From positions 5,508 to 69,507 of the forward strand of contig JAZNMZ010000061.1 in NCBI GenBank assembly GCA_045580005.1: a stretch of 64,000 nt of DNA. The letters are read 5' to 3'. Positions 35,015-60,678 of the stretch are shown piece after piece (within the stretch, counting starts at the first letter, position 1; every line of letters starts with the position of its first letter). Below the pieces are notes generated by a model, which saw only the letters and a program-made list of their open reading frames with translations, was not told the DNA's origin and did no database searches. Source of the DNA: Eubacteriales bacterium (GTDB lineage: Bacteria > Bacillota > Clostridia > Oscillospirales > CAG-382). The position numbers were made by a program, and so were the translations under genes.

Positions 35015-36099
35015 TGGCAGACATTAAGACAAAAGAATCATTGCACACGGTCAAGTTCTTTGACCGTGTGCAAAACCTCGCCATGAAAACGCGCGAGGGT
35101 GTTGAAGAAGCGAAGCAGGGAATAGGTGATACTGTTAATTCTTCCGATAACGACGCAAGCGATTACGGTGCAAACAGACTTCAAGAATTCGAGGGCAGTC
35201 TTGCGGTATTTACAGCTTATGCCGCTAAAGAAACCGGTGAATGGGGGCTTCGTGAAACCGAAAAGAACATTCGCCGGATAAGGAATAACCGCAAGATTAA
35301 TCATACTGCAACTCCCAAATCCGTGAAGAATCCTATTAAAACGGCGCAGAATACCAAGGAAACGGCTCGAACGGCTGAAAAGACTGCAAAAGCCTCGAAA
35401 GCTGCGGCGAAAACAGCAAAAGAAGTGGTGAAGGCCACCGCTGAGTTTATAAAGGAAGCGGGGAAAGCAATAGTAGCTACTGTAAAAGCTGCTGTTGCCG
35501 CGATCAAGGGACTCATAGCGGCTATTGCCGCAGGCGGATGGATCTCTGTTGTCATCATTGTTGTTATAGTTCTCATAGGCGGACTTGTAGCCGCCACTTG
35601 CGAGATATTCGTCCCCGATGAGAACGGCGGATATTCCGTTGTCTATATGATGAATGCCTGCGAGAGCGAATACGGCGGAAAAGAGGCTGAAATAGTGAAT
35701 ACAGTTCCCCATGATTATCTTGTCATTCACGGAGAAGAAGCCGATATGAAGGACATTATCGCGGTTTATGCCGTCAAGTCAAAAGCTACGGGAGATAAAT
35801 TGCTTGTGGCTGACGAAAAGAATCAGGAGATATTCCGAGAGGTCTTTGACTATATGTATTCCATCTCATATCATCGCTCCGAGATTATTGAGTTTGTCAA
35901 AGTTGAGAAGGTTGACGAATCGGGAAATACAAGTTATGTTATCGAAGAAGTTCCTCGCATAATTCTCACTATTGAAAGAAAGACCAAATCTGCATACAGA
36001 GCTGCAGAGCATTTTGAGTTTAAGAAGCAACAAATGCAATACCTCGATACGCTCATGGATAGCGACTTCGATGAAATGTGGACGGCGTTGGTCGATTGA
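35014..36099 (+). CDS. 5' part of a CD1108-like T4SS protein, apparently truncated before its cell-wall hydrolase domains
   Basis: 361 aa with N-terminus MADIKTKESLHTVKFFDRV, a lysine/alanine-rich segment and one TM. The ORF ends at ..FDEMWTALVD inside a perfect palindrome, exactly where base composition shifts. No hydrolase motif is present. Confidence 0.6.
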   Translation: MADIKTKESLHTVKFFDRVQNLAMKTREGVEEAKQGIGDTVNSSDNDASDYGANRLQEFEGSLAVFTAYAAKETGEWGLRETEKNIRRIRNNRKINHTATPKSVKNPIKTAQNTKETARTAEKTAKASKAAAKTAKEVVKATAEFIKEAGKAIVATVKAAVAAIKGLIAAIAAGGWISVVIIVVIVLIGGLVAATCEIFVPDENGGYSVVYMMNACESEYGGKEAEIVNTVPHDYLVIHGEEADMKDIIAVYAVKSKATGDKLLVADEKNQEIFREVFDYMYSISYHRSEIIEFVKVEKVDESGNTSYVIEEVPRIILTIERKTKSAYRAAEHFEFKKQQMQYLDTLMDSDFDEMWTALVD

Positions 36100-36109
36100 C
36101 CAACGCCGT
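36082..36109. repeat. perfect 12-bp inverted repeat with 4-nt spacer at the backbone/island junction
   Basis: ACGGCGTTGGTC gatt GACCAACGCCGT. The stop codon TGA (36097-36099) spans the spacer and right arm, and no T-tract follows. Confidence 0.85.
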
Positions 36110-36255
36110 AATACATATATAATAATTATCCTTGCTTTGTATTGACAAAGATTTTTGGTTATGATAATATCGCGGGAGCAACTACTTACATAAGCAAAGG
36201 GAATCGATGGGTTTAATCGGTCGCCTTTGACTAAAATGAAAAGGAGAATACTGCT

Positions 36256-37194
36256 ATGTATTACAAAGAGTGGCTCTGCGATTGGTTGGAGCATTACATG
36301 AAACCTACTACAAAAGACAAAACATTTACGCGTTATTGTGAGATTGTCGAAAAACATTTAACGCCAAAGCTCGGAAATTACGAAATTGACGAGATCACCC
36401 CACTCGTCGTACAGCGGCAAATTAGCGAATGGCTGTCCTGCGGCAATCTGATTACAGGTGAAGGACTTTCAGCCAATACGGTTAATTCGTTTATATCTGT
36501 AATACAAAATTCGTTGAAAACTGCGAATATGATAGGTATTGCGGATAAATATGAGATGAATAAACTAAAAAGGCCCAAAATCAAGGAAAAGCAGGTTACA
36601 TGTTTTACACTTGAGGAGCAAAGACTAATTGAGAGGGCAGCTATGGAAGATAAACGTGTAAAAATGAGAGGGATTGTCCTCTGCTTGTATACCGGGTTAA
36701 GAATTGGCGAACTGCTTGCCCTTGAATGGCAGGACATCGATTTCAATAAATGTGAGATTTCTGTTGTTAGAAGTTGCCATGATTCAAAGGATTTAACCGG
36801 AAAACGTACTAGAGTGACTGACACCCCCAAAACAGAAACCTCTAAACGAGTAATTCCACTTCCCAAACCTATATTAAAAATGCTGAAAGACATGAAAAAG
36901 AACTCTGCTTCCCGGTATGTGATAGCTGACGGAAACAAAGTTCTGTATGTTAGGTCTTACCAAAGGAGTTTTGAACTGCTATTGAAAAAGTTGAAAATAT
37001 CGCATCACGGATTTCATTCCCTTCGTCATACTTTTGCAACAAGAGCTTTGGAATGCGGTGTTGATGTAAAAACATTATCTGAAATTCTCGGTCACAAATC
37101 TTCAACTATAACACTTAACCGATATGCGCACTCTTTAATGGATCATAAAAAGGATATGATGAATAAGATTGGAAAGATGTTTATCGTTTCATGA
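36256..37194 (+). CDS. tyrosine-type site-specific recombinase/integrase
   Basis: 312 aa. Catalytic region motifs are LYTGLRIGELLAL (Arg), HSLRHTFATRAL (H-x-x-R) and LGHKSSTITLNRYAH (His and Tyr). Confidence 0.9.
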   Translation: MYYKEWLCDWLEHYMKPTTKDKTFTRYCEIVEKHLTPKLGNYEIDEITPLVVQRQISEWLSCGNLITGEGLSANTVNSFISVIQNSLKTANMIGIADKYEMNKLKRPKIKEKQVTCFTLEEQRLIERAAMEDKRVKMRGIVLCLYTGLRIGELLALEWQDIDFNKCEISVVRSCHDSKDLTGKRTRVTDTPKTETSKRVIPLPKPILKMLKDMKKNSASRYVIADGNKVLYVRSYQRSFELLLKKLKISHHGFHSLRHTFATRALECGVDVKTLSEILGHKSSTITLNRYAHSLMDHKKDMMNKIGKMFIVS

Positions 37195-37310
37195 TATGAG
37201 CATCTGTTTCTATAATAGGTGGCGTTATTAGTAGTTATTATAGCAGAAAAGAAATGGATTGTCAATATTTAAGAGATATAATTGTACTTAATCTTGTGCA
37301 TTTCAAGTAA

Positions 37311-37389
37311 TTAGGTGCGCAATTGCTATGATTTGTGCACCTATTATAGAAATAGGTGTACAAAAACTTATAAAGAAAATACACCTAAT
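37311..37389. promoter_or_regulatory. four alternating-orientation copies of TAGGTG(C/T)(G/A)CA (candidate recombinase or repressor binding sites)
   Basis: TTAGGTGCGCA at 37311-37321 (+), GTGCACCTATT at 37335-37345 (-), ATAGGTGTACA at 37352-37362 (+) and TACACCTAAT at 37380-37389 (-). The inner pair forms an inverted repeat with a 7-nt spacer. Confidence 0.5.
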
Positions 37390-37431
37390 GGGTGGATAAA
37401 ACTATATGATGATCTATAATAAGGAGCCGTA

Positions 37432-37812
37432 ATGTTAATTCGATACGATTATTCCAATAATGATGAATGCAAGCCCGATACGACCGAAGTCAACGATTTG
37501 CCTGAATTAGAGAAAATTGCTAATAAGAATGACAAACAGAATTATGATCTTAATAAGTTGGGGATTTTAAAAGAATTACATTTAATTATTAACACAATAG
37601 CAGAGCAAAACTGTGATTTCTATGACTATGGATTCGATGAAATAAAAAGAGTGGGATACTTAAAGTATTACATCAGAAAAAGCGGTTATTTGGTCTCCAA
37701 GGATACGGGCGTAATTCAGCTATTGGAAATATTGCAAAAAGCTGATGTAATCAAAATTGAAACCATAGAGCACTATATCGCACTTTCCTTTTATGTTGTA
37801 GTAACAGAATAG
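37432..37812 (+). CDS. hypothetical protein
   Basis: 126-aa ORF with RBS AAGGAG upstream. No motif recognised. Confidence 0.5.
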   Translation: MLIRYDYSNNDECKPDTTEVNDLPELEKIANKNDKQNYDLNKLGILKELHLIINTIAEQNCDFYDYGFDEIKRVGYLKYYIRKSGYLVSKDTGVIQLLEILQKADVIKIETIEHYIALSFYVVVTE

Positions 37813-38323
37813 GAATGCGAATCATCTTTGTATTGTATTAAGTGACGAATAATCAATTTAGTGTTGTTATATTATACTGCCATAATATAGCAAACTAGGA
37901 TGTATTAAAGGGATTTACATAGAAATATGATAGATCCCTTTTTTCTATTGAGATAGCTTATGCGTTTTAATGAGAACAAAAAACGAAAAAATAAAATTTG
38001 CATATTATTGGAGAGTTTTTCATAATTAATTTGTTATATAGGTTGTAAGCCACCAATGTCATTGTGACAATGGTGGGCTTTTTTGTCAGATTAATTTACA
38101 AAATACAGCGATAGAAGTATTAAGGATAGCGATAATCAAATCACTTGTGTTATGGTGTGTTTGATGGATTTTGGAATAACATATATGCATTGTTATATTA
38201 TATGTTAATTTTGGATTTAGATCTTTAAGTATCTATTGAGAAAGGAATTCATTATTAACAATTCTTATTTGAATCTTGATGTAGTATATCGTAATTGTTT
38301 TAAAGAAGTGGAGGTCGAGAAAT

Positions 38324-38680
38324 ATAGGCCCTGCTGAAAGAAGACATAAGATTTTGGTATTGCTATGCAGACGTAGGCATGAGAAGATAAATGTTTTAGC
38401 AGCAGAGTTTAATGTTTCTCCAAGGACAATTGAACGCGATATTGCGATCTTAAGTCTCGATGAACCGATTTATACTCAATGTGGTAAATATGACGGAGGC
38501 GTATATATTGATGAATGCTTTACATTAAATCGCGTTTACATGACAGATATGGAGATAGAAGTACTTGAGAAGCTATATGACCAAGCTGTTAATTCACAAG
38601 TGCTACTAACAAGTGTTGAACAAAACACTTTGTATACTATTATCAGCGAGTATAGTAAGCCCAAAATAAATAAAATGTAA
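38324..38680 (+). CDS. HTH (DeoR/HTH_11-like) regulator, paralog 1, with ATA in place of the start codon
   Basis: Homology to paralog 2 (GPAERR..L..LCR.R.EK..VLA.E..VS.RTI.RDI..LS..EPIYTQCGKYDGGVY) begins at 38327. GGAGGT plus 8 nt precedes ATA at 38324, where paralog 2 has ATG. The first conventional in-frame start is TTG 38354. Confidence 0.55.
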   Translation: MGPAERRHKILVLLCRRRHEKINVLAAEFNVSPRTIERDIAILSLDEPIYTQCGKYDGGVYIDECFTLNRVYMTDMEIEVLEKLYDQAVNSQVLLTSVEQNTLYTIISEYSKPKINKM

Positions 38681-38842
38681 TCGTATGTATGTAACGATAT
38701 TTGCATAGTGGATATCGATCAAAAATTTAATATCTTAAATAGCTCCATATTAGAACTCGGATATGGAGGTGAGTTGTATTATAACATACAGTACATGGAG
38801 ATGTTTATGATATTGAATATAAAATAAAAAAAGGGGGACAAC

Positions 38843-40099
38843 ATGAGTAAAACATGTGAAACCAAAATTAAAGTAGAATTGTCTGCTTTAATTTTAATAA
38901 TACTGTTGATCTTATTATTAGTTTGCGGTTGTGATGATATCGGAAATTATGAAGCTGAAAATCCGACAAACAGCATAGACAATAATATGGATTATATGCA
39001 AGAAAGTGTTGACGCGCAAGGAGATATAACGCAAAATGTGATCTTTCCTCAAGAAACAAATGTTGCATCAACAAATGAAATCACAATCATTGATGATACA
39101 TCTGAAGGATGTGTTATAGTTGGCGTAAAATCAATGGTGTGTGTTTACGAAGATGATTCAAGGTATACCATTAATACTGCTCTGCTCGCGGGAGTTACAT
39201 TGTCTGGAGGGTGTGAATATGATGTCAAAGTTAAAATATCTGAATTAAGCAGTATAACGTCATTAAAGCCCGGATACTATGACTTGATTTATTATTGCGA
39301 GGATGAAACAATAAATCCTGTTTTAACAAAATTGCTGGTGAAACCTGCCGATAAGACTCCGCCCGTGATAAGCGGTACTGTGGATAAAATAGTCGTTATA
39401 GGAGATAGCGTTTCTTATCGGAAGGGTGTAGAGGTTACAGATAATGACGATGAAAATGTAAAGTTGATCGTAGATGCATCTCATGTCAATCTGACGAGGA
39501 TCGGGACATATACGGTTTCGTATTCCGCAACGGACAAGCGTGGTAATACCTCGAGTTTATCAATTAAAGTTACAGTTATTAATAGACCTGACAATTATAT
39601 CGGCAATAATGAGGTTTGTACCGAAGAAGAATTTCAAAAGCTGTGTAATGATATTTTAAAAGAAATAATATTTGATGGTATGACAGATTACGATAAAGCT
39701 GCGGCAATATATGACAGAGTTCATTCAATAAAATATGTAAGTACTACTGTGGGGGATGATAATTGGGTTACTGCCGCATATATCGGGCTTACTACAGGAC
39801 GCGGTGATTGTCAAAACTATGCAGCAGCGTCAAAGGCTCTTCTGTCTATGGCCGAAATCCCTAATTATGATATGGAGCGAGAGGGAGGAAAGTCAAAGCA
39901 CTTTTGGAATATCGTATATGTGAATGATGGGTGGTATCATTTTGATGCCTGTCCGACATTACCTCAGTATCCGATGAAAATATTTCTTCTTACAGATGAT
40001 GAGGCAATTGCTTATTCTAAAAGTTGTTTGGGCATACCCAATTATCTTATATATGATTACGAGGCTTGTCCATATGAAGTAGTTAAATCGCGAGATTAA
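38843..40099 (+). CDS. lipoprotein with Ig-like (DUF5011-type) and transglutaminase-like cysteine protease domains
   Basis: 418 aa with signal/lipobox LLVCGC. The Ig-like segment is DKTPPVISG..VTDNDDENVKLIV..GTYTVSYSATDKRGNTS. The transglutaminase core is GRGDCQNYAAA...HFWNIVYVNDGWYHFDA (Cys-His-Asp). Confidence 0.75.
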   Translation: MSKTCETKIKVELSALILIILLILLLVCGCDDIGNYEAENPTNSIDNNMDYMQESVDAQGDITQNVIFPQETNVASTNEITIIDDTSEGCVIVGVKSMVCVYEDDSRYTINTALLAGVTLSGGCEYDVKVKISELSSITSLKPGYYDLIYYCEDETINPVLTKLLVKPADKTPPVISGTVDKIVVIGDSVSYRKGVEVTDNDDENVKLIVDASHVNLTRIGTYTVSYSATDKRGNTSSLSIKVTVINRPDNYIGNNEVCTEEEFQKLCNDILKEIIFDGMTDYDKAAAIYDRVHSIKYVSTTVGDDNWVTAAYIGLTTGRGDCQNYAAASKALLSMAEIPNYDMEREGGKSKHFWNIVYVNDGWYHFDACPTLPQYPMKIFLLTDDEAIAYSKSCLGIPNYLIYDYEACPYEVVKSRD

Positions 40100-40111
40100 A
40101 GGAGATTAAAA

Positions 40112-40687
40112 ATGAAAAATTTATTAATTGCTATCATACTATTTGTCATATTATCAACATTGGTTTCTTGCTTGAGTTCGGAGAATTCAGAGATTTCAAG
40201 CGACATGATAAATACCGCTTATCAAATGGATAAAGTGGAAACTTCAAGTACCAAAGAGAGTAAATACTTGTTTAGCGTTGCAAGTGCTGACGGCTTTGTC
40301 ATATCGGTTAATATGGATATAAGAGATGTCTTAAGTCAATTGGGCGAACCTCTCAAGTATGTAGAATCCCCTTCATGCGCTTATATAGGTTTTGATAAAA
40401 CCTACACATATAGTGGCTTTGCTATTACTACACGGCCAGAAGGCGAAAATGATTATATAAATCTAATTATTCTAACCGATGATAGTGTTACAACTCCGGA
40501 AGGAATATTTATCGGAGATGATGCAAATAATATTAAAGCAGTATATGGAGTGCCTGTCAAGGAAAATGATAATCTAATAAGCTATAAGGATGGATATACT
40601 TTGCTTAATTTTGTTTTAAAAAGTGGAGAAGTAATCTCGATTGAATATTTATCTTTAGACGAGAGCGATGATATTATTGAAAACTGA
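40112..40687 (+). CDS. lipoprotein of unknown function
   Basis: 191 aa with signal peptide and lipobox LVSC. Confidence 0.6.
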   Translation: MKNLLIAIILFVILSTLVSCLSSENSEISSDMINTAYQMDKVETSSTKESKYLFSVASADGFVISVNMDIRDVLSQLGEPLKYVESPSCAYIGFDKTYTYSGFAITTRPEGENDYINLIILTDDSVTTPEGIFIGDDANNIKAVYGVPVKENDNLISYKDGYTLLNFVLKSGEVISIEYLSLDESDDIIEN

Positions 40688-40776
40688 AACTACAGAAACT
40701 ATATGATTATCTTTACTCTTAAATTATATTTTATTGGCATAATTAGCCGATTAAAGAAGCAGTAAATTACATGACG

Positions 40777-40822
40777 AAAATCCGCATCAAATGAAGTAGC
40801 GTTTGATGCGGATTTTGTTTTG
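40777..40822 (+). terminator. strong rho-independent terminator
   Basis: 15-bp stem AAAATCCGCATCAAA / TTTGATGCGGATTTT followed by GTTTTG. Confidence 0.85.
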
Positions 40823-40944
40823 AAACGAACCATTAAAACGATTTCAGATAAAATAATTTGCTCAAAGCACAAAACAGTTTTTAACTATGACATTACTTGT
40901 CATGGTTAAAATGTAGAATGGTGTCGAAATGGAGGTGCACCATT

Positions 40945-41337
40945 ATGGGACCGGCTGAGAGACGAAATGAAATAATGAGGATACTATGTCGTCAAAGATA
41001 TGAAAAGATGAGTGTGTTGGCAGAGGAATTGGGGGTATCAGTACGAACCATTGGAAGAGATATTTCAGCGTTAAGTATTAGTGAGCCGATCTATACGCAG
41101 TGTGGAAAATACGATGGCGGCGTGTATGTTGTAGACAGTTATTCTCTGAATCGTATTTATATGAAGGACAATGAAATAGAAGTTCTATGTAAAATACATA
41201 GGTGGGTGCTGATAACAAAAGGGGTACTAGATGATTCGGAAATCAATATTTTGAAATCTATTATTGATGAGTACAGGAAACCTCAAGGGGGAAATGTTAG
41301 CCATAAAGATAGTAAACCAGATAAAGTGAGCATATGA
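40945..41337 (+). CDS. HTH (DeoR/HTH_11-like) regulator, paralog 2
   Basis: ATG at 40945 lies 8 nt after GGAGGT. MGPAERRNEIMRILCRQRYEKMSVLAEELGVSVRTIGRDISALS... Confidence 0.7.
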   Translation: MGPAERRNEIMRILCRQRYEKMSVLAEELGVSVRTIGRDISALSISEPIYTQCGKYDGGVYVVDSYSLNRIYMKDNEIEVLCKIHRWVLITKGVLDDSEINILKSIIDEYRKPQGGNVSHKDSKPDKVSI

Positions 41338-41365
41338 AATATATTTGGACAGAGAGGATTTGAAG

Positions 41366-41659
41366 ATGGATTTTGAAAGTTTCATTAAGCCGGAATTACT
41401 TATTCTTGTTCCGGTGTTATATATTATTGGAATAGGATTAAAAAAGAGTAAAATATCAAATAGAGTAATTCCTATTACATTGGGAATTGTTGCGGTAATT
41501 TTATCTGCTTTTTGGGTAATAGCCGATTCGGATATTTACAGTTACAAGGATGTTGCTAATGCAATTTTTGTATCTTTTACTCAGGGGATGCTTTGTGCAG
41601 GAGCATCTGTATATGTGAATCAATTGATCGTTCAGGCAAAAAAGGATGAGCGAGATTGA
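41366..41659 (+). CDS. phage-type holin
   Basis: 97 aa from ATG 41366 (RBS GAGAGGA). Two or three TM helices and a charged C-terminus (QAKKDERD). Similar to holins of Firmicutes phages (..LLILVPVLYIIGIGLKKS...GMLCAGASVYVNQLI.Q). Confidence 0.6.
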   Translation: MDFESFIKPELLILVPVLYIIGIGLKKSKISNRVIPITLGIVAVILSAFWVIADSDIYSYKDVANAIFVSFTQGMLCAGASVYVNQLIVQAKKDERD

Positions 41660-41764
41660 AAATGGCATGTAATATTCAAATATTTTAATTGCAAAAAACA
41701 TTTCAACTATGACAGAAGTTGTCGTATTAGCAGTTTACAATAATAGCATAGCCAAGCAAAAGAG

Positions 41765-42064
41765 GTGATAATTTTGAAAGAAACGAAAATAGTTTTAGTT
41801 AAACATGAGCAGAGATTGAAATCACTCGAGAAAGATCTATCCGCTTTGATGGCGGTACAAACTGAAATACATGCTATGAATGAGAGCCTTGTGACATTAG
41901 CCACGGAAATTAAACATACAAACGAGCATTTGTCTAGACATGAGCAAAAAATTGCTGAATTAGACTCTAAACCTAAAATGCGAATGGACCAATTGGTGAC
42001 TGCAATAATAGCAGCTTTGGCAGGAGGCATAATTTCTGTGATTTTAGGATTGATTTTTAAATAA
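41765..42064 (+). CDS. xhlA: XhlA-like (hemolysin XhlA family) lysis accessory protein
   Basis: About 96-99 aa with an N-terminal coiled coil and a single C-terminal TM (LVTAIIAALAGGIISVILGLIF), as in PBSX XhlA. The start may be TTG 41774. Confidence 0.55.
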   Translation: MIILKETKIVLVKHEQRLKSLEKDLSALMAVQTEIHAMNESLVTLATEIKHTNEHLSRHEQKIAELDSKPKMRMDQLVTAIIAALAGGIISVILGLIFK

Positions 42065-42416
42065 TTCTTATGTCAAGGTGAATACTTTCGCGTAAACCAA
42101 TAAAGAAGATGTATTCTTTTATTTATTTAGCAACAAAGTGATTCTTAATATACAATGCAGATGAATTGTGAAATAAGCTTGGCTATATTTTAATACTTAT
42201 GACCGAGGCACTTCTTGCCTGGTTTGATTAATATAATAAAATCACAGCTGTGAATGATTGGGACGCCAATCAAGATAAGTAATGTACATAGTAGGAGGAT
42301 TGTAAACGATGTAGTACCAAACAACATGAGCTAAGAAATAAGAATAATTACGTCTGATTACGCAACAGAATTATACGCAGAAAAAATGACTTGTAAAATT
42401 AAAAGGAGAAAATATC

Positions 42417-43391
42417 ATGACAAGTAACGAAGTAAAAAACGAACTTATAGAATTAAAAAACGACCGTTTTAATACAACAAAGTATTGGAATGACCTCAAT
42501 GGTGGAGATGCAACTTTATCTAATTGGGGGCTTGCAGATAGTGAATCTAACAACGCCTCCAATAGGTATGGTGATGCAGAAGAATGCTATGGGTTTGCGT
42601 TGTTTTTGGCACACTATCTTTTTGGATCACAATTGGAATACGATAATATCAATGATACATGTGACGGTCATCCAGTGATTGGTGCGGGAGAGTGGACACT
42701 ATACAAGAGCGACCTTCAAAGCTTTCCCATTCAACCGGGAGATATTATTAGAACATACAGCGGACACTCGGCGATGGTAAGAGAAGTTTGTGGGGATGGC
42801 AATTTCAAGGTAGCAGAATGTTTAGGCAATGGTAAATGTAGAGTGGCGTGGGATTATTGGAGTGGCAACAATGAAGATCACCCTGTTAGCATAGCAACTG
42901 TTCTGGCCGATGCAAGATATATTTTGAAAGCGCCTACCGAGGATGCTATTGCTCCAGAAGTTGATAATACAACTTATAAAATTACGAATGTTGGAGCATC
43001 AAAATGTCTGAATATTAGAGGCAACAACCTGTTTATTCTGGATAATGCGATTAATGTTGTGTCGTGGCATGATACCGGATCTAACGAACAGAAATGGGTT
43101 GTCTATGAACTAGATGAAAATACACATATCAGATCGGCTATAGATAAGTCATTTGGTTTGAATGTTTATCGTTCTGGCAGCCCTTTCAATTGTAATATTC
43201 GCAAAATTGCAGGTAATGAAACAGATGCGAGTGTTGACATAATAGCTGACGGAGAATCGTATAAGGTTAAACTTCACAACTATGATTTGTATCTTACTGT
43301 AGGAAACAGTAATAACGATTCTAATATCTATTGGGATTCTGCTTCTGATAGTGATTATCAGAAATGGATTTTTACCGAGATCAATTTTTAA
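42417..43391 (+). CDS. leaderless Cys-His (CHAP/NlpC-P60-like) amidase/peptidase fused to a ricin-type beta-trefoil lectin
   Basis: 324 aa with no signal peptide. Candidate catalytic Cys is in EECYGFALFLAHYLFG and His in PGDIIRTYSGHSAMV. The C-terminus has QxW repeats (EQKWVVYE, YQKWIFTE). Confidence 0.65.
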   Translation: MTSNEVKNELIELKNDRFNTTKYWNDLNGGDATLSNWGLADSESNNASNRYGDAEECYGFALFLAHYLFGSQLEYDNINDTCDGHPVIGAGEWTLYKSDLQSFPIQPGDIIRTYSGHSAMVREVCGDGNFKVAECLGNGKCRVAWDYWSGNNEDHPVSIATVLADARYILKAPTEDAIAPEVDNTTYKITNVGASKCLNIRGNNLFILDNAINVVSWHDTGSNEQKWVVYELDENTHIRSAIDKSFGLNVYRSGSPFNCNIRKIAGNETDASVDIIADGESYKVKLHNYDLYLTVGNSNNDSNIYWDSASDSDYQKWIFTEINF

Positions 43392-43584
43392 TTAAAATCA
43401 CTATATATGATTCAATGGACTAAATATGGTGTGCTTAGCGTTTGAATTGTAGATAGTAAAGGCATGACGGTTTTGATTTTATGTCACAATCGTCATGCCG
43501 CATTTTAATTAAGATGTTTTGATAATTCTTGATTTGGTGGTTTCGTGTATTTATATTCGTGTTTTGTATATGTGGAATTTTCTC

Positions 43585-43613
43585 TTGCATTTTGTTAATT
43601 AATGTGATATAAT
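43585..43613 (+). promoter_or_regulatory. sigma-A promoter TTGCAT-17-TATAAT (extended -10 TGA)
   Basis: TTGCAT at 43585-43590 and TATAAT at 43608-43613. Confidence 0.6.
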
Positions 43614-43657
43614 AGTATTAAGAAAATTTAACCAAACACATGAAAGGGATATTTTGC

Positions 43658-44236
43658 ATGCTACCGATCATACTGGCGATCAGAGATGAAGAAGATAGAA
43701 ACTTTGTGTCCGGAATTTACGAAGATTACGGAAAGCAACTATATAAAACAGTTTTTAGTATTTTGAATAGTAACGAAGATGCAGAGGATTGTGTTCACGA
43801 TGTAATAGTAGCTCTCATCGATAATTTGGAAAAAATTAGAACATTCGAATCCAATCATCAAATTAAATATATTATAAAATGCTGTCGGAATATTGCTCTT
43901 AACAGGTATCGCGCAAATAGCGTTAAATCAAGTTCGGAGTTTTCAACATCATATTCAGAAGAAGAAGGGGAGATGGATATTCCCGATGATAATTCTGATG
44001 TTGCATTGCTGGTTGTTGATGCAGAAAACAATAAGCGACTGATTACTCTTATTCAAGATTTGCCGGAAATATATAGTGATGCGCTGTATTTTAGGTTTTA
44101 TATCGGAATGACAAATGGTGAGATAGCTAAAATGCTTGGAATTACTATTCACGCAGTAGAAATTAGAGTAAGCAAAGCCAAAGCAATGTTGCGAAAGATG
44201 AAAGGAGATGAGCTGAATGACATTCGCAGAAAATGA
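43658..44236 (+). CDS. ECF-type sigma-70 family RNA polymerase sigma factor
   Basis: About 192 aa from ATG 43658. Region 2 is EDAEDCVHDVIVAL..KYIIKCCRNIALNRYR. Region 4 is LPEIYSDALYFRFYIGMTNGEIAKMLGITIHAVEIRVSKAK. Confidence 0.85.
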   Translation: MLPIILAIRDEEDRNFVSGIYEDYGKQLYKTVFSILNSNEDAEDCVHDVIVALIDNLEKIRTFESNHQIKYIIKCCRNIALNRYRANSVKSSSEFSTSYSEEEGEMDIPDDNSDVALLVVDAENNKRLITLIQDLPEIYSDALYFRFYIGMTNGEIAKMLGITIHAVEIRVSKAKAMLRKMKGDELNDIRRK

Positions 44237-47177
44237 AAAATTAGAATGTTTGATCAAATTGACTTACATAGACGATGATATGTCCGATGTTAAGGCGTTT
44301 AAAGCTATGGATGTTTCTGATGTTGTTTTAAGTGATAAATTAAACAAAAGAGTAGATAAGCTGATTAATAAATCCAATCATAATAAAAGAATTATGATAA
44401 AGAAAAGTACAGTGAGACTCTTGGTAGCTGCAGTTATCATGGCTACACTGATTATTGCATCCATCCTTAGTATTTCCGCTGTTCGTGATGCAATAAGAAA
44501 TGCAATAGTTGATTTTTTTGAAGAATATGTGTCCGTTCACTTTATACCGCAAAGCGATAATGCTGAATCCACAAGCGATGAGTTACCTTCGGCAGATGCA
44601 ACAAGTGTTGAAACATTGTCTAATTTGAATTCAATTCAAGAATATAAGCGTCCAAAACTTCCTGAAGAATATAACATGGTTGAATTAATGAAAACCAGCG
44701 GCATGTATTGCTTTGAAATCTATCTGAATGATGTAGATTCGGTTAACGCGGATGATTTGTATTCGGTCACGATTGACAACGGAGACGGAACCCAGACAGT
44801 AAATATTTTTCAGCAGCCCATAAAGTATATTGACGAAGACGGCTCAATCAAGTTCCGCACAAATTCGTTGGAGCGAATTTCCTCAAATTCGATATTCTCA
44901 ACCAAGAATAGTACTTACACATACAAGAATGAAGAAGGCGAAGTAAAGACATATTATTCGGATAAAATTGAAAACGGCGTTAGCATAGTGTACAATGATT
45001 ATGCAATAGCAATTCAGCCGCTTACAGATTCATCAAAGTACCCAGATATAAGCACATTGATGGGTATAGAAGCGGTTGGAGAAGCCGTGGATACATCAAA
45101 GGCTGTTTCTATTGTTCCAACACAGGATGATGTAAAAACACAGGATGTGACTTTTTCATGCGATAATAGCAAGATAATGTACCATAATGTTTTAACAAAC
45201 GGAATTACATATGAATATATGCCCATTCCTAACGGAATCAAGGAAAATATTATTTTGAGTAAATACAGTGGTTTTAATGCCTTTAGATTCGTTATGAATT
45301 TCGGAGAATTGGTTCCGGAAGTACTCGCTGTAAGAGGAGACAGTATTAGATTGTATGATCCGAATGATCCTGATGCAGAAGGAATGATTATTTCCCCGAC
45401 ATATGCATATGATGCTGTTGGACGATTCTCCTACGATCATGCAATGTACTTGACGGAAACCGATGTCGAGGGACAGTATATTTTGACACTTGTAGTTGAT
45501 CGCGAATTTCTTGAAAGTGCTGACACAGTATACCCTGTTACAATTGATCCGACTGTATACCCCGAGCATACTGACGGTGTTGCAGATACCTTTATATCAA
45601 GCAATCATCCGACGATAAATTACAGTCATGCTGTGTTTATGCCCATTGGAAATGATGTGAACTATGCGCAATCTGAAGCATTTGTACAGCTTCAAAATAT
45701 AGAGAACTATAGTATTGATCCGCAATCTATAACAGAGGCAAAACTTGTTTTAAACTGTTATTTTACAACAGGAAATGAAAACAATCCGGTATTGATTTAT
45801 GGTTATAGTAACAACTCTAATGTAGATATATCTAATGTAACATGGGCGAATAGACCATCTAATGTATCCGGAACCCCATATGGATCTATTGCCGGAAATC
45901 CGCTCTCGATTCAAGGAACCAACCTCGTACAGATGCATATAACTGAGCTGGTTAGAGATTGGTTTTTATTTAAGAGCAATGATGGCGGACAGTCGTATTT
46001 GAATTCCATAAGGTTGAGGATGGAAAACGACACCACAGAAACTCATTATGCAACTTTCAGAACAACAGAATGGAATAATGGTAATTATCCGTATTTTTCT
46101 ATTACATATATGAATACGGCTCCTAACTTGATTAGCGGCAAGTATTATTATTTGAAGAATAAAATGACGGGGCAATATTTATCCATTCAAGACAACGTGA
46201 GTACCGATGAGGATATTGTACAAAAGTTTGATTCCGGTGACGATGGGCAGAAGTGGAAGATTGTTCTTATCGGGGAGAACGAATATAAACTGGTATCCAA
46301 ATTGCATTCCGGGAAAGCGTTGTGTGCGGCTACGGGCGATGATGTAATATTTAATACATATGTGAGTAACTCTAATGGAGATTTTATAATAGAAAGAAAC
46401 ACCGATGGTTACTCATACAGAATTATCGCGGCTAATATGCAAGGTGATATGGCGATTTCTGTCAATGGAGAGAATTACTCGGAAAATACCGAAATTGTAC
46501 TCATAGCATATGTTGATGGTCAAGAACTATCTGAATGGATATTTGAACCTGTAGATTATTTTTCAAAAGAACTTTTACTCCAATATGCGCTTAATAATGA
46601 TGATGACATACCTGAGAACGTTCCCGGTATGTATCCATGGCTCAATCAAAAGGATTCGAATATATTAACTCCAAATAGGTATGATGATGCTGACTGTGCC
46701 AACTTCGTTTCTCAGTGTTTGCTGGCAGGAGGAGTAAACTTCGAGGGTCGCTGGTGGATTTACAAGCTTAATGATGATAATCCCTATCCTACCCTAAGTG
46801 ATCATTTTAATAATAGTTGGAAAGTTGATGATTCTGATGATAATAATCCATGGATAAGTGCCAAAGGCTTTGATGAATATTGGAGAGATCGGGTAGCGCA
46901 TCAAGATTTTACTACAGGTCAGTTATTGGCAGATGATAAACCCGAGGGATTGTATAATTTTGAAGTGGGCGATGTTATTATGGTGATGGAAAATGGCATT
47001 GGTACTCATGCAATGATAATAACTCGCGCCCCGGAAGATTATAGAAATGAAGATGAAGTATTATATCTTTCGGGCCATACTAATTTCAGAATGGACGAGA
47101 GCTTTCGTGATATTTTAGAAGATATGAATACTAACACGGTATTCAGATTTTATAACTTCCATGATATAAAGGGGTAA
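44217..47177 (+). CDS. anti-sigma-like membrane protein fused to extracellular DNRLRE-like, ricin-lectin and Amidase_6-type domains
   Basis: 986 aa overlapping the sigma gene by 20 nt. A short cytoplasmic N-terminus is followed by one TM (LLVAAVIMATLIIASILSI). Extracellular motifs are ADTFISSNHPTINY (DNRLRE-like), a ricin-like segment with GQKWKIV, and C-terminal DCANFVSQCLLAGG...GDVIMVMENGIGTHAMII (Cys-His amidase). Confidence 0.7.
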   Translation: MTFAENEKLECLIKLTYIDDDMSDVKAFKAMDVSDVVLSDKLNKRVDKLINKSNHNKRIMIKKSTVRLLVAAVIMATLIIASILSISAVRDAIRNAIVDFFEEYVSVHFIPQSDNAESTSDELPSADATSVETLSNLNSIQEYKRPKLPEEYNMVELMKTSGMYCFEIYLNDVDSVNADDLYSVTIDNGDGTQTVNIFQQPIKYIDEDGSIKFRTNSLERISSNSIFSTKNSTYTYKNEEGEVKTYYSDKIENGVSIVYNDYAIAIQPLTDSSKYPDISTLMGIEAVGEAVDTSKAVSIVPTQDDVKTQDVTFSCDNSKIMYHNVLTNGITYEYMPIPNGIKENIILSKYSGFNAFRFVMNFGELVPEVLAVRGDSIRLYDPNDPDAEGMIISPTYAYDAVGRFSYDHAMYLTETDVEGQYILTLVVDREFLESADTVYPVTIDPTVYPEHTDGVADTFISSNHPTINYSHAVFMPIGNDVNYAQSEAFVQLQNIENYSIDPQSITEAKLVLNCYFTTGNENNPVLIYGYSNNSNVDISNVTWANRPSNVSGTPYGSIAGNPLSIQGTNLVQMHITELVRDWFLFKSNDGGQSYLNSIRLRMENDTTETHYATFRTTEWNNGNYPYFSITYMNTAPNLISGKYYYLKNKMTGQYLSIQDNVSTDEDIVQKFDSGDDGQKWKIVLIGENEYKLVSKLHSGKALCAATGDDVIFNTYVSNSNGDFIIERNTDGYSYRIIAANMQGDMAISVNGENYSENTEIVLIAYVDGQELSEWIFEPVDYFSKELLLQYALNNDDDIPENVPGMYPWLNQKDSNILTPNRYDDADCANFVSQCLLAGGVNFEGRWWIYKLNDDNPYPTLSDHFNNSWKVDDSDDNNPWISAKGFDEYWRDRVAHQDFTTGQLLADDKPEGLYNFEVGDVIMVMENGIGTHAMIITRAPEDYRNEDEVLYLSGHTNFRMDESFRDILEDMNTNTVFRFYNFHDIKG

Positions 47178-47593
47178 TGAAAATGAATAACAAGGTTAAA
47201 AAGAAGCACACCGTCACTCGTATTATTGTAATTGCAGCATCGTTATTGTTGGCATTGGCTATTATTGGGTTGCTTCTTCCTCTGATCTTCCTACCGATCG
47301 TTGATTACGGTGATTCTCAACTTTATTCAAAGACCGAAATGGATGAGGTCATTGATATGTTTTCGAATGGACTAGGCGTAGTTACAATAAAATACTTAGG
47401 GGATGAACGCTGTGAAAAGGAATTAGAACGCTACCAAGCTAAAGACGGTAAAGAATATACAGATTGTATGGTTTTTTATTACACATTTATCAGAGGGACC
47501 TTTCGGGATTTTCCTTTTTATGATTGGGCTGATATTGTTTTTCTCAAAGAAGGCAATAATGACTGGTTTCAAAGAAACGGCGGAAAGTGTTGA
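47177..47593 (+). CDS. N-terminally anchored small protein (possible cognate partner or immunity protein)
   Basis: 138 aa with a start overlapping the stop of the upstream gene (TAATG) and one TM. A degenerate inverted copy of its 3' end lies at ~52733-52800. Confidence 0.5.
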   Translation: MKMNNKVKKKHTVTRIIVIAASLLLALAIIGLLLPLIFLPIVDYGDSQLYSKTEMDEVIDMFSNGLGVVTIKYLGDERCEKELERYQAKDGKEYTDCMVFYYTFIRGTFRDFPFYDWADIVFLKEGNNDWFQRNGGKC

Positions 47594-47694
47594 TAGTGCT
47601 ATGTAAAATCAGAATCAAAGTTTTCACCAAATGGGTGATGTAATAGTAAAATGAATCTCTCGTCGAGAAATTGAATCCATCAATGCAATGATAT
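47591..47694. repeat. left arm of a long inverted repeat (partner 52545-52737)
   Basis: My hand alignment shows its reverse complement matches 52545-52593 and 52674-52737, with a few mismatches. Confidence 0.8.
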
Positions 47695-47866
47695 GGAGCG
47701 AGCCTTAAAGATCAGCCTTGCTCTCGAAGGAGATGATGAGTGATCCGCCCGTTCTTAGGATCGATTCGGAATTTGAGTCGATAATACCGCCTCTTGATGA
47801 GGAAGAATTCAGGCAGCTGGCAGATAATATTCTGCGTGACGGTGAGATATATCATCCTAACACTGA
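47690..47866 (+). repeat. direct repeat copy A (mazF 3' end plus parB-like 5' end; partner 58722-58898)
   Basis: About 175 bp with 6 substitutions relative to copy B by my hand alignment. Homology ends at 47866. Confidence 0.85.
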
Positions 47867-47930
47867 TCACGGTCGGAGATACGACTCGAAACAACTGCAC
47901 GCAGTCTGTATGAGAGCGCGGCGTTTTTGA
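47712..47930 (+). pseudogene. truncated parB-like gene fragment
   Basis: The first ~50 codons ([42 protein letters not shown]) match the intact gene at 58742. After that it diverges, lacks the DGHHR motif and stops. Confidence 0.7.
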
Positions 47931-48050
47931 TTTTCCGTTACGCTACGCTCCACTCCAAATCAAAAACGGATTATCTGTAATCTGAAAAAAATCAAAAAAT
48001 ATTATGTTTGTTTTGTCCATAAAAGGACGGAAAGGTCAGTAAATTATTCA

Positions 48051-48782
48051 ATGAAAAACATGAAATATGTAGTGCTTGTAAGTTTTATTGTTATGACCGT
48101 TTTTCTTACATCATGTAGTAATGTTGCAGGCATAGATGAATCTGTTTCGGTTGGAAATATGACAGTTACTGTAACCGATATATATACAGAAAATCAGTAT
48201 ACATATATGATAGCTCGGTTGACATTTAATACTCCGGGATCTTATATAGACGGAGTTTTTACAAGTTGTAATGTTGTTGGGAATGGCAATGGCGGTTATA
48301 GCTTTGATTTGATTGGATATAATAAAGAAGAACAAACTCAAACATATTTAGTTCAGTATCATCCAACACCCAAATCTAAAAAAATCGTCATGGAGCTTGG
48401 TTCCTACAGGTCACAAATAAATCCGTTGGAATTGATATCCGATGCAAGATTTAAATTCTCAATAGATCTTTCGGAAAGCAGTGTGCCCATAAAAACCGTT
48501 GAAATTAATGATCAAGTGATATCTCGAATTCAAATTTTCAGAGATCTTATTATTATTGAATCCGCAAGAATTGATAATAAATATGCCGATTTGAAGGGAT
48601 ACGATATCGAAGTGTGCAGTATCGACGATACTGAAATCGCTGTTGGCATTAATACTTTGGATTTGGATAAAAGCGCACATAAAGCATATTTGCTATTAAA
48701 TGACGAAGTTGAGGATCAAACTTCAATAGAAATCCTAATTAATGAAAAAACTTATTTAATTAACTTATCTGAAGGAGAATAG
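48051..48782 (+). CDS. lipoprotein of unknown function
   Basis: 243 aa with signal peptide and lipobox LTSC. Confidence 0.6.
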   Translation: MKNMKYVVLVSFIVMTVFLTSCSNVAGIDESVSVGNMTVTVTDIYTENQYTYMIARLTFNTPGSYIDGVFTSCNVVGNGNGGYSFDLIGYNKEEQTQTYLVQYHPTPKSKKIVMELGSYRSQINPLELISDARFKFSIDLSESSVPIKTVEINDQVISRIQIFRDLIIIESARIDNKYADLKGYDIEVCSIDDTEIAVGINTLDLDKSAHKAYLLLNDEVEDQTSIEILINEKTYLINLSEGE

Positions 48783-52544: not shown

Positions 52545-52737
52545 ATATCATTGCATTGATGTATTCAATTTTTCGACGAGAGATTCATTTTACCATACTA
52601 TCAAGGGAAGAGGTGCCGTTATCGGAAAAATCTGCCCGATAAAACCGATTGTGTTCTAATCTCTTCTTCCTACCATTACATCACCCATTTGGTGAAAACT
52701 TTGATTCTGATTTTAGATAGCACTATCACCCCTTTTC
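52545..52737. repeat. right arm of the long inverted repeat, carrying an ~80-bp insertion (52594-52673)
   Basis: See the left arm at 47591-47694. The inserted segment has its own short stems (GGAAGAG/CTCTTCC and ATCGG/CCGAT). Confidence 0.8.
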
Positions 52738-52817
52738 GCCGTTCCTTTGGTAACCCTCAAATAACCCCGCGTCTATAAAAATAAACCGTCCTCTGGTATA
52801 ATAATAGGTGTAAGCGG

Positions 52818-53195
52818 GTGCAAGAATCGAACCGCAAGGCGAAGACCGAATCCCGTATGTGGGTATACTGTGCGGGTAAATATGAGAATCATTCAAACAT
52901 TCTCTTTGAGTACTCTACTACAAGAAGCGGAGACAATGCACAAAAGTTTCTTGCCGGCGATCGCGGCTATCTTGTGTGTGACGGATACGATGGCTACAAT
53001 AAGCTGACCTGTGTCACCCGATGCGGATGCTGGGCTCATGCAAGGCGCAAGTTTGTAGAGGCATTACCGACGGACAAAGAATTACTTGCCACCTGTGCCG
53101 CCGCCAAGGGTGTTGAGATATTAAAATCCATCTCGCACCGTGGGGCTGTCTTATATACGCGATGTGTAACAGATGTTATCGTTTTGGATGTATGA
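52818..53195 (+). mobile_element. IS66-family transposase remnant (internal DDE fragment, pseudogene)
   Basis: SRMWVYCAG..LFEYSTTRSGDNAQKFLAGDRGYLVCDGYDGYNKL..RCGCWAHARRKFVEAL matches the central part of IS66 TnpC. N- and C-terminal parts are missing, and there are no tnpA/tnpB genes or terminal inverted repeats. Confidence 0.7.
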
Positions 53196-58389: not shown

Positions 58390-58767
58390 ATGAGCCAATA
58401 CAAGACGAAAAAGGACACCATATGCCGCGGCGATATATACATGGCTAACCTAAACCCGTATAAGGGATCGGAACAAGGCGGCAAACGTCCCGTTATTGTG
58501 ATTCAAAACGATGTCGGCAATAAACATAGTTCTACAGTAATTGTTGCCGCTGTAACAAGTAGATTTTTCAAGAAGCGAACAATGCCCACCCACGTAAGCG
58601 TTATATCGCCTGCATTAGAGAAAAACTCGCAGGTGCTTCTTGAACAGATCAGGACTATCGACAAATCCCGTCTTATTATAAAATTAGGGCGGGTTTCTGA
58701 TGACGAAATGAAAGAGATAGAGCGAGCCTTAAAGATCAGCCTTGCTCTCGGTGGAGATGATGAGTGA
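58390..58767 (+). CDS. mazF: MazF/PemK-family endoribonuclease toxin
   Basis: 125 aa. [45 protein letters not shown]...[12 protein letters not shown] is a textbook MazF signature. Confidence 0.9.
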
Positions 58768-58898
58768 TCTGCCCGTTCTTAAGATTGATTCGGAATTTGA
58801 GTCGATAATACCGCCTCTTGATGAGGAAGAATTCAGGCAGCTGACAGATAATATTCTGCGTGACGGTGAGATATATCATCCTATTATTATATGGAATG
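58722..58898 (+). repeat. direct repeat copy B (partner 47690-47866)
   Basis: Spans the mazF 3' end and the first ~50 codons of the intact parB-like gene. Confidence 0.85.
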
Positions 58899-60485: not shown

Positions 60486-60607
60486 CAACAGAGTATCGTA
60501 TGGCAAAGAAACACCACCGAAAATCTGTCTTGACCGGCAGGACCTGACGGTGGTGTTGTACATAGCCGAAAAACTTGAACAATTACCAAGTTTTTTCGAA
60601 AAAGCTA

Positions 60608-60636
60608 TTGCAATTATTCAAAATATATGGTATAAT
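60608..60636 (+). promoter_or_regulatory. sigma-A promoter TTGCAA-17-TATAAT (extended -10 TGG)
   Basis: TTGCAA at 60608-60613 and TATAAT at 60631-60636, about 40 nt upstream of the ATPase start. Confidence 0.6.
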
Positions 60637-60678
60637 TACTTCGTAAAAAGCGAACTAATAATTATATTGGAGGTAATT

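Follow-up and report, generated by a model that had tools for sequence, protein, structure and literature searches.

A 986-residue anti-sigma-like amidase of a ruminant-gut conjugative element as the probable product of a recent deletion between two neighboring genes

Introduction

Can a cell-wall amidase tethered to the membrane serve as the sensor of an extracytoplasmic function (ECF) sigma factor? The question is raised by a 64,000-nt stretch of DNA from an Eubacteriales bacterium (GCA_045580005.1, contig JAZNMZ010000061.1, positions 5,508 to 69,507), hereafter the window, in which an ECF sigma gene is overlapped by an open reading frame (ORF) of 986 codons. The encoded protein has a short cytoplasmic N-terminus, a single transmembrane (TM) helix and a very large ectodomain ending in an amidase. 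A preliminary description of this DNA took the amidase/lectin ectodomain to be the sensor of an ECF switch. Here, we report that the 986-residue ORF is most likely a recent in-frame chimera of two neighboring genes, generated by a 1,122-bp deletion, and therefore an evolutionary accident instead of a new kind of sensor. The enzyme and the 138-residue protein encoded directly downstream are, to judge from their sequences, most likely an effector of the polymorphic kind, exported by Sec and aimed at the cell wall, and the extracytoplasmic protein that confers immunity to it. We put the probability of this explanation, taken as a whole with the effector/immunity pair included, at roughly 0.85.

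Results

Parents, junction and alleles of the 986-residue ORF

The ORF (44217-47177, +) overlaps the end of the sigma gene by 20 nt and begins behind a Shine-Dalgarno (SD) sequence, AAAGGAG, at a 9-nt spacing. A start at the internal Met60, which would yield a plain signal peptide, was rejected since no SD sequence precedes that codon and position 44217 has both AAAGGAG and the overlap with the sigma stop codon.

The left parent of the ORF was found in a variant contig, L009, whose DNA matches the window at 99.8% up to 44745, diverges after that position and continues into a terminator and a gene of a ~140-residue protein family. The L009 protein (P0096, 247 residues) is the same as chimera residues 1-176 apart from one substitution and then carries an intact DUF4367 domain. 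The right parent is a native 879-residue enzyme (L017, L019) with the signal peptide MKGKFLKQIIAIVLALAMCSSVFLSISA, residues 70-879 of which show 99.9% identity to chimera residues 177-986. Because the chimera is ~100% identical to both of its unfused parents, it is very young. Moreover, both parents reside on one molecule, since a 17.9-kb contig (depth 29) from the bovine-gut run X9 is colinear with the window over 36000-44745 and 44740-48358 save for 1,122 extra nt in between. The deletion junction (44740-44745, +) is an imperfect 6-bp microhomology, CGGTTA in the window and the left parent and CGGATA in the native enzyme gene. The parent reads GATTCGGTTA/TGTAT, the native gene TCTGCGGATA/ACGCG and the window GATTCGGTTA/ACGCG, and the join is in frame.

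By a reckoning from L009, L017 and the lengths involved, the DNA that was lost (1,122 bp) would run from the last 71 DUF4367 codons through the terminator, an intergenic region of ~180 nt and the ~140-residue gene to a short spacer and the enzyme's first 69 codons. A deletion between directly adjacent genes was also considered and found to be partly wrong, as the ~140-residue gene stood between them. An event of the opposite polarity, with two complete genes restored by an insertion, lacks credibility in view of what is normal among the enzyme and membrane-protein relatives.

The distribution of the two alleles was followed in 20 sequencing runs from at least 11 studies. Eighteen of the runs hold 0.92-0.94 of the words sampled from the junction region, a share that fits the loss of junction-spanning words, and the other two hold 0.99. 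Unfused contigs were recovered from X3, X5, X6, X9 and X20; in X3, X5, X6 and X20 they break at the junction, with the parental DUF4367 as the loose end on one side and the 5' end of the native enzyme gene on the other. The fused junction is spanned by contigs in X1 (370 nt), X2 (911 nt, depth 10.6 vs. 11-12 in the flanks) and L002 (3,726 nt), and fused and unfused alleles co-occur in X1. An exact 25-mer left of the junction had zero matches in genome contigs and in metagenome contigs. The window allele is real and circulating, but it is a minority deletion derivative.

A minor rearrangement in X2 connects 43642, at the sigma start, to the deletion junction at 44740 (1,097 nt skipped, depth 5.5), and X1 has a loose end at 43642. 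Since this joint adds to the evidence from the deletions, the segment appears to be a hotspot of illegitimate recombination.

Architecture of the chimeric protein

Residues 1-67 (44217-44417, +) constitute the cytoplasmic module of the sigma-partner (putative anti-sigma) family and are 61% identical to the DUF4367 protein beside the closest sister sigma gene. The single TM helix (residues 68-89; 44418-44483, +) is evident from the sequence, following K/R-rich residues, and the structural model has a helix at residues 40-83; the TM segment predicts an N-in/C-out topology with the enzyme outside. Residues 90-176 (44484-44744, +), modeled with a low predicted local distance difference test score (pLDDT), hold a juxtamembrane motif, a linker and a stub of the first ~40 DUF4367 residues, and are identical to P0096/L009 up to 44745. 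At residue 177, homology to the enzymes P0001-P0014 sets in with the beta-rich N-terminal trunk of a secreted enzyme family (residues 177-455; 44745-45581, +), modeled at pLDDT ~90, which has no Pfam match and belongs to no named family.

Three recognizable domains follow the trunk. The first is a DNRLRE/CBM96 domain at residues 456-630 (45582-46106, +; NF033679, E 1.8e-16, 60.6 bits vs. a cutoff of 34), the homologs of which match PF24517. The second is a ricin-type beta-trefoil at residues ~640-780 (46134-46556, +; RicinB_lectin_2, PF14200, E 7.9e-10, 39.7 bits vs. a cutoff of 25.6). The third is an Amidase_6 tip of the papain-like NlpC/P60-CHAP cluster at residues 781-986 (46557-47177, +), with the profile match (PF12671, E 3.3e-19, 70 bits vs. 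a cutoff of 23.2) at residues 823-975. The segment ADCANFVSQCLLAGG and the Cys/His motifs (C827, H931, H954) are kept in the 47%-identical homolog P0001. An AlphaFold2 (AF2) model built from 56 sequences was confident over residues 180-780, and Foldseek matched it to beta-trefoils (TM-score 0.84, 3pg0) and to the CBM96 structure 8wab (TM-score 0.73). The amidase tip reached a pLDDT of only ~30 in the full-length model, its alignment being shallow, and a sequence search of the tip against the PDB returned nothing.

Much of the preliminary description is borne out by these results. The layout of a short cytoplasmic N-terminus and one TM helix in a gene that overlaps the sigma gene is as it was given. 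All three extracellular domains that it named (DNRLRE, ricin trefoil and C-terminal Cys-His amidase) lie above their profile cutoffs, the structure prediction that it proposed returns the trefoil and CBM96 folds, and the catalytic Cys-His domain, on the absence of which it would have been abandoned, is present.

In the sister element L003, the chimera has undergone another in-frame deletion, of 2,382 bp, which joins residue ~117 to residue ~912. The trunk, CBM96, ricin domain and C827 are removed by this event and the 138-residue gene is kept.

The N-terminal module and the DUF4367 partner family

Window residues 1-172 align with sister DUF4367 proteins from the cytoplasmic segment across the TM helix and the juxtamembrane motif into the first DUF4367 strands, and the alignment ends at 'YLND'. 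The full domain is present in P0096; the chimera retains its first ~40 residues only. An exhaustive HMMER search with residues 1-135 yielded 143 cluster representatives, matched over the first ~120 residues. Nearly all were 225-290 residues in length, the longest had 736, and none was as long as the chimera. Ten representatives, including the seven longest, were scanned for domains and contained only DUF4367, in up to four tandem copies, and the architecture of the chimera is the sole case of its kind among the 143. A word-indexed search with the N-terminus retrieved only a deletion variant of the same gene.

No known anti-sigma domain was found in the N-terminal module by Pfam at E<=5, and a profile made from 28 N-termini had no meaningful match in the PDB, solved anti-sigma domains included. 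A Pfam scan of the 986-residue protein likewise detected no RsgI_N or SEAL-type juxtamembrane domain. The DUF4367 membrane protein is presumed to be the anti-sigma factor of the ECF sigma on the grounds of gene coupling and topology. In agreement with the preliminary description's assignment, the N-terminus does belong to a single-pass family that is translationally coupled to this sigma family, the evidence being the sister loci and the HMMER matches.

The sigma gene and its sister loci

The sigma gene (43640-44236, +) encodes an ECF-type (group 4) factor with Sigma70_r2 (PF04542), r4_2 (PF08281) and TIGR02937 matches (76.3 bits for the last, cutoff 42.9), in which only sigma-70 regions 2 and 4 are present. 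Its true start is likely 43658 (Met7), which has an SD sequence. Homologs (n=50) are mostly 184-202 residues long, the closest relatives reaching 67% identity; no relatives were retrieved when the sigma factor was used as query in representative genomes. A housekeeping-type promoter with an extended TG element, TTGCAT-17 nt-TATAAT, can be read at 43585-43613 (+) and is shared with sister loci, where TTGC-N17-TGnGATATAAT occurs upstream of the sigma genes of L004, L006 and L008. An autoregulatory ECF-type promoter is absent 5' of the sigma operon, the promoter there being of the conserved housekeeping type.

At the sister loci L004-L007, the sigma gene is followed by a DUF4367 gene of ~250 codons and then by a gene for a ~140-residue secreted protein. 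The sigma and DUF4367 genes overlap by 20 nt in L004 and L005, as in the window, and abut in L006 and L007. The DUF4367 partner is thus present at four of five sister loci, with L008 showing only the ~140-residue gene. The three-gene module of ECF sigma, DUF4367 membrane protein and ~140-residue secreted protein is conserved in L004-L009, often with a DUF6514 protein after it, and does not occur in the window.

The ~140-residue genes of all five sister loci share the upstream motif GNANNKTTTT-N9-TTTTGWWAT, a candidate sigma-dependent promoter by its sequence. The window lacks the region that holds this motif at the sigma locus. Its sole match in the window, GGAGAGTTTTTCATAATTAATTTGTTAT, lies at 38010-38037 (+) with one mismatch; 0.04 matches would be expected by chance, and one match was reached in 4 of 100 shuffles. 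The genes at 41.3-44 kb, upstream of which an ECF-dependent motif had been proposed as a check, have none. The match at 38010-38037 is located ~320 nt 5' of an HTH_11 gene, which precedes a transglutaminase-like gene.

The secreted enzyme family

The 986-residue protein has 44 homologs that have the trunk in common. All nine of those that were read (P0001-P0006, P0008, P0010, and P0014) begin with a cleavable signal peptide. They resemble the window protein only from about residue 176 onward, starting at 'NADDLYSVTIDNGDG'. Common to the homologs are the beta-rich trunk and CBM96 and, as a rule, the ricin domain; the tips vary and include Amidase_6, an HExxH metalloprotease, M23, Amidase_2, lipase and RHS. 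With a conserved trunk and differing tips, the architecture of the family is therefore polymorphic. Amidase_6 has been discussed beside Tae3, a type VI secretion system (T6SS) peptidoglycan-amidase effector, and HHpred ties the T6SS effector TseH to Amidase_6 (PMC10318531, PMC4453574). By its sequence, the enzyme of the window is probably a peptidoglycan amidase as well.

The native operon can be strongly transcribed. In the metatranscriptome X25, a 3,567-nt RNA contig at a depth of 82 covers the enzyme gene and the 138-residue gene and reaches 737 nt into native upstream sequence, with a depth of ~2 over sigma. If X25 has the arrangement of X9, arithmetic would place the 5' end of this transcript ~11 nt before the ATG of the ~140-residue gene, just 3' of the motif described above.

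The 138-residue partner protein

The gene for the 138-residue membrane-anchored protein, a candidate immunity protein (47177-47593, +), is coupled to the 986-residue ORF by a TAATG stop/start overlap, as had been proposed; Met3 at 47183 has the better SD spacing. The protein is homologous to the product of a 133-residue lipoprotein gene that lies 3' of P0001, the other Amidase_6-tipped enzyme (E 3e-13). When translations were compared by eye, with no alignment, it had no evident similarity to the 244-residue lipoprotein encoded 3' of the metalloprotease-tipped P0002. Co-variation of partner and tip was therefore seen across two tip-linked loci: the partner gene follows the Amidase_6 tip, and the metalloprotease-tipped enzyme has a different gene next to it. 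The possibility that the 138-residue protein is the ~140-residue third gene product of the sigma module was rejected, because the two align poorly and it matches the gene after P0001 instead. No family of known function was matched by the protein.

The exact 138-residue protein is listed in 99 collection blocks. Besides its enzyme-linked form, the gene occurs in at least six unrelated chromosomal contexts (valS, thyA/folA, a thioredoxin gene, pgk/tpi and others), several of which recur in independent assemblies, and the flanks have a GC content of 0.45-0.53 vs. 0.37 for the cassette. These orphan copies are usually preceded only by an 83-residue, Cys-less amidase tail; in one lineage the gene is joined directly to the 67-nt sigma promoter, and this promoter piece (43569-43635) also drives the orphan cassettes of L012, L016 and L020. 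Cassette boundaries differ among the contexts (loci L011, L012, L015, L016, L018, and L020-L024). Because the partner is retained beside a dead toxin stub, the pattern is the signature of an orphan immunity gene, and it looks like such a gene is spreading among ruminant-gut Clostridia. The protein is anchored by a TM helix and its L010 version by a lipobox, both placing it on the outer face of the membrane. Taken together, its sequence and its distribution suggest that the 138-residue protein is the immunity protein of the amidase. The resemblance to effector/immunity loci that was remarked on earlier has thus gained substance from the trunk with variable tips, the P0001-linked homolog and the orphan copies.

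Neighboring genes of the element

The window is a conjugative element, as marked by a relaxase, a type IV coupling protein (T4CP), VirB4, a 2,839-residue SNF2/methylase protein and a large adhesin. Its host is a member of the ruminant-gut Clostridia, and the 986-residue ORF is placed in a low-GC accessory block. A phage origin was rejected because a megablast search against phage records gave no match for the window and because relaxase, T4CP and VirB4 identify a conjugative element. The 2,839-residue protein (11042-19561) is an SNF2-helicase/Eco57I-type methylase fusion of a kind typical of conjugative elements, and a 1,824-residue surface protein (4590-10064) carries 16 Listeria-Bacteroides repeats and a MucBP domain. 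A tyrosine recombinase gene at 36.2 kb (36256-37194), directly 3' of the type IV secretion system genes, sits exactly where the GC content drops from ~0.46 to ~0.34. Possibly, the low-GC block entered the conjugative element by a secondary insertion. It encodes a transglutaminase-like protein, a helix-turn-helix regulator, a holin, an XhlA-like protein, a leaderless 324-residue ricin protein and the sigma locus, as well as two secreted proteins, a BlaR1/BlaI pair and an IS66 fragment.

Upstream of the sigma operon, the accessory block genes at 41345-43391 (+) encode the holin (41345-41659, +; phrog_1129, E 2.9e-22), the XhlA-like protein (41765-42064, +; phrog_937, E 3e-9) and the leaderless ricin protein (42417-43391, +; PF14200, with a sub-threshold CHAP match, E 0.03). 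A phage-type holin, an XhlA-like protein and a ricin protein with a weakly CHAP-like N-terminus make up a trio resembling a lysis cassette within the conjugative element. The variant contig L009 lacks the entire block 38891-43400. An amidase-plus-ricin theme had been proposed to link the 324-residue protein to the 986-residue one; the ricin half of this proposal stands (PF14200) and the amidase half does not go beyond the sub-threshold CHAP match. BLASTP found weak ricin similarity only between the two proteins (E 0.04), and a single-sequence AF2 model of the 324-residue protein had a pLDDT of 39, too low for use. A terminator-like hairpin read from the sequence (43461-43506, +; GGCATGACG...CGTCATGCC, then GCATTTT) lies 3' of this gene and divides it from the sigma operon.

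Downstream of the 138-residue gene, comparison of sequences revealed a repeat block (47570-47859). Its first ~125 nt (47570-47694) have an inverted copy at 52545-52749 with ~90% identity. The preliminary description had seen a degraded second copy of the 138-residue gene's 3' end there. The inverted repeat is confirmed, but it includes just the last 24 nt of that gene, the remainder being downstream DNA. The repeat brackets a 5-kb segment with genes for secreted proteins of 243 and 506 residues and BlaR1/BlaI, and an IS66 transposase fragment lies at 52818-53195. In the other part of the block, 47682-47859, the 5' end of a 336-codon gene at 58742 is repeated in direct orientation (94% identity to 58707-58883), which leaves a truncated ORF of 70 codons (47718-47930). 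A PemK/MazF-family toxin gene (58390-58767, E 6.7e-35) is followed on its 3' side by genes for a DUF6551 protein (59688-60485) and an AAA_21/SMC_N ATPase (60550-61803).

Discussion

In the current study, we asked whether the 986-residue protein is a sensor of its ECF sigma factor, and the unfused genes in most of the metagenomes inspected point to a different history. In the proposed scheme, the ancestral element would have carried two units. In the first, the housekeeping-type promoter would have driven the ECF sigma gene and the overlapping gene for a 247-residue single-pass DUF4367 protein, up to a terminator. The second would have encoded the ~140-residue secreted protein, the 879-residue Sec-secreted enzyme (signal peptide, beta-trunk, CBM96, ricin and Amidase_6) and the 138-residue membrane-anchored partner. 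Illegitimate recombination at the 6-bp microhomology would then have eliminated two-thirds of DUF4367 at its distal end, together with the terminator, the promoter region between the genes, the ~140-residue gene and the first 69 enzyme codons with the signal peptide. As a result, the mature enzyme would now be exported by the signal-anchor helix of the putative anti-sigma factor, would remain tethered in an N-in/C-out orientation, and would be transcribed only from the promoter of the sigma operon. A sigma module deprived of its sensor domain and its third gene is probably mis-regulated, not newly wired. The deletion most likely lowers and re-routes expression of the enzyme and cripples the sigma switch, without creating a sensor. 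The data establish how the genes are built, their homologies, the deletion, how its alleles are distributed and that the native operon is transcribed; sigma binding, membrane topology, the substrate of the amidase and immunity are predictions.

Several observations weigh against this scheme. The content of the 1,122 bp in X9 was deduced from L009, L017, the loose-end sequences and length arithmetic. The anti-sigma role of the DUF4367 family is suggested by gene coupling and topology, Pfam and the PDB having given no known anti-sigma domain, and the immunity role of the 138-residue protein by two linked loci and the distribution of the orphans. The X25 transcript may stem from an L017-type context rather than from a sigma-linked one. 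Finally, the reading frame is intact in the fused allele, which has a good SD sequence, is translationally coupled and stands at full local depth in X2. It was encountered in at least three to four independent samples and is hence tolerated, and it could have gained a use.

Among the alternatives, the one with the most in its favor concerns the 138-residue protein, which might not confer immunity but act as an accessory factor to the amidase, for example as a membrane receptor, a chaperone or an activator. The protein matches no family with a known function and just two enzyme-linked occurrences were compared, so we treat this reading as a serious one, albeit unlikely. It does not readily account for the widespread orphan copies, which lack a functional enzyme and often adjoin a Cys-less toxin stub, the classic signature of orphan immunity. 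Nor does it account for the extracytoplasmic anchoring of the protein, which uses a TM helix in the window and a lipobox in L010 and puts it where a wall-acting enzyme must be blocked.

It is also conceivable that the accident proved useful, with the enzyme displayed on the surface of the producer or freed by regulated intramembrane proteolysis upon sigma activation, so that release of the effector is coupled to transcription. The catalytic motifs are intact, the immunity-like gene is kept, the allele stands at full depth in X2, and a misfolded DUF4367 stub could serve as an entry site for a protease. We nonetheless regard such a neo-functional effector as improbable: no sign of selection was seen, the promoter found with the strongly expressed native operon has been lost, and the second deletion in L003 drops the enzyme while keeping the 138-residue gene.

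The architecture of the chimera mimics that of known anti-sigma factors. The RsgI anti-sigma-I factors and Rsi24C-GH5 of Clostridium thermocellum are single-pass proteins with a cytoplasmic sigma-binding N-terminus and an extracellular carbohydrate-binding module (CBM) or a module derived from a glycoside hydrolase (GH) (PMC10328401, PMC3526467). However, those are old conserved families that work with SigI-type factors or sigma24, whereas the N-terminal module of the chimera is one of the DUF4367-partner family. In RsgI the juxtamembrane domain is autoproteolytic; in the chimera, neither an RsgI_N nor a SEAL-type domain was detected. The GH5 module of Rsi24C has lost catalysis; the amidase of the chimera, in contrast, looks catalytically intact by its motifs and was gained by a very recent deletion. 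The chimera fails the defining features of these families and was not built by selection. One may still imagine that it captures an anti-sigma factor of the RsgI or Rsi24C type as it arises, with an ectodomain that would bind or cut peptidoglycan or glycan and thereby gate intramembrane proteolysis of the anti-sigma module. We give this idea little credence; if it were true, the element would gain a switch responsive to the status of the wall, or one that frees the effector on firing.

Less probable still is an evolved sensor, in which the amidase/lectin ectodomain monitors the state of peptidoglycan or glycan and governs the release of sigma in the manner of the CBM ectodomains of RsgI and the GH ectodomain of Rsi24C. 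The layout does fit, a cytoplasmic module, a TM helix and a glycan-binding ectodomain being encoded in a gene that overlaps a sigma gene, natural precedents exist in RsgI-CBM3b and Rsi24C-GH5 (PMC10328401, PMC3526467), and the allele is in frame and present in several samples. Against this, the ~100% identity to both unfused parents makes the gene very young, the join was made within DUF4367 instead of at a domain boundary, the architecture is unique among 143 family representatives, the allele is in the minority, the ectodomain has been deleted in L003, and an RsgI_N or SEAL-type juxtamembrane domain was not found. The proposal of a tethered amidase/lectin as an ECF sensor is accordingly not sustained. 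An assembly artefact, that is, a mis-join of two contigs at a short repeat, could be suspected from the 6-bp repeat at the junction, the short-read metagenomes and the presence of both alleles in X1, but is scarcely credible in view of independent junction-spanning contigs in X1, X2 and L002, an L003 derivative that can only descend from the fusion, and a repeat far too short for collapse of a 31-mer graph.

With the 986-residue ORF read as a deletion chimera, its two ancestral units can be compared with other systems separately. The sigma unit recalls RseA/RseB (MucA/MucB) in combining an ECF sigma, a membrane partner and an ectodomain, here DUF4367, which we take to have a LolA-like fold from its Pfam clan. 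It differs in that this domain is fused to the membrane protein, whereas RseB/MucB-type proteins are separate periplasmic proteins. Furthermore, no anti-sigma domain homology was detected here, and the promoter is of the housekeeping type and not an autoregulated ECF promoter. DUF4367 has also been described as an extra domain on Bacillus subtilis SsdC, an ortholog of the LolA-like GerS (bioRxiv 10.1101/2025.01.13.632879).

The enzyme unit resembles WapA of Streptococcus suis, a Sec-exported toxin whose N-terminal cell-wall module consists of a signal peptide, an unknown domain and DNRLRE (PMC12704120). Both have a signal peptide, an unknown N-terminal domain, a DNRLRE trunk and a variable C-terminal toxin, and an RHS-containing relative (P0042) is among the homologs of the window enzyme. 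Unlike WapA, the window family has no Rhs cage; after its trunk come a ricin lectin and an enzyme tip that is directly attached, and these tips are mostly wall- or surface-acting hydrolases, not nucleases. There is a further likeness to the T6SS pairs Tae/Tai and TseH and to bacteriolysins such as lysostaphin and zoocin A, in the papain-like or NlpC/P60-type amidase directed at rival walls, the adjacent small extracytoplasmic protein and the dispersed orphan immunity genes. Export of the window enzyme is predicted to occur via Sec, in contrast to the T6SS of Tae and TseH, and the immunity candidate differs from Tai in belonging to a TM-anchored or lipoprotein family of 138 residues without known homologs. 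Immunity to bacteriolysins is usually conferred by wall modification and not by a binding protein.

For annotation, this case indicates that an eye-catching multidomain ORF of the 'anti-sigma-enzyme' kind can be a very young deletion product, and that near-identical metagenome alleles resolve such cases quickly. The chimera amounts to a natural construct, an anti-sigma factor whose sensor has been swapped for a large folded enzyme. Of more general relevance are the parts from which it was made. The uncharacterized module of ECF sigma, DUF4367 protein and ~140-residue protein is widespread in gut Clostridia, and in this element it lies directly 5' of a highly transcribed effector operon. The Sec-exported enzymes, with a CBM96-ricin trunk and swappable hydrolase tips, resemble a polymorphic bacteriolytic toxin system of Gram-positive bacteria. 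The parts most worth following are this sigma module beside the effector operon and the widely spread orphan immunity-like gene. The presence of the 138-residue candidate immunity gene at ~100% identity in many chromosomal sites of ruminant-gut bacteria suggests that this effector exerts strong selection there.

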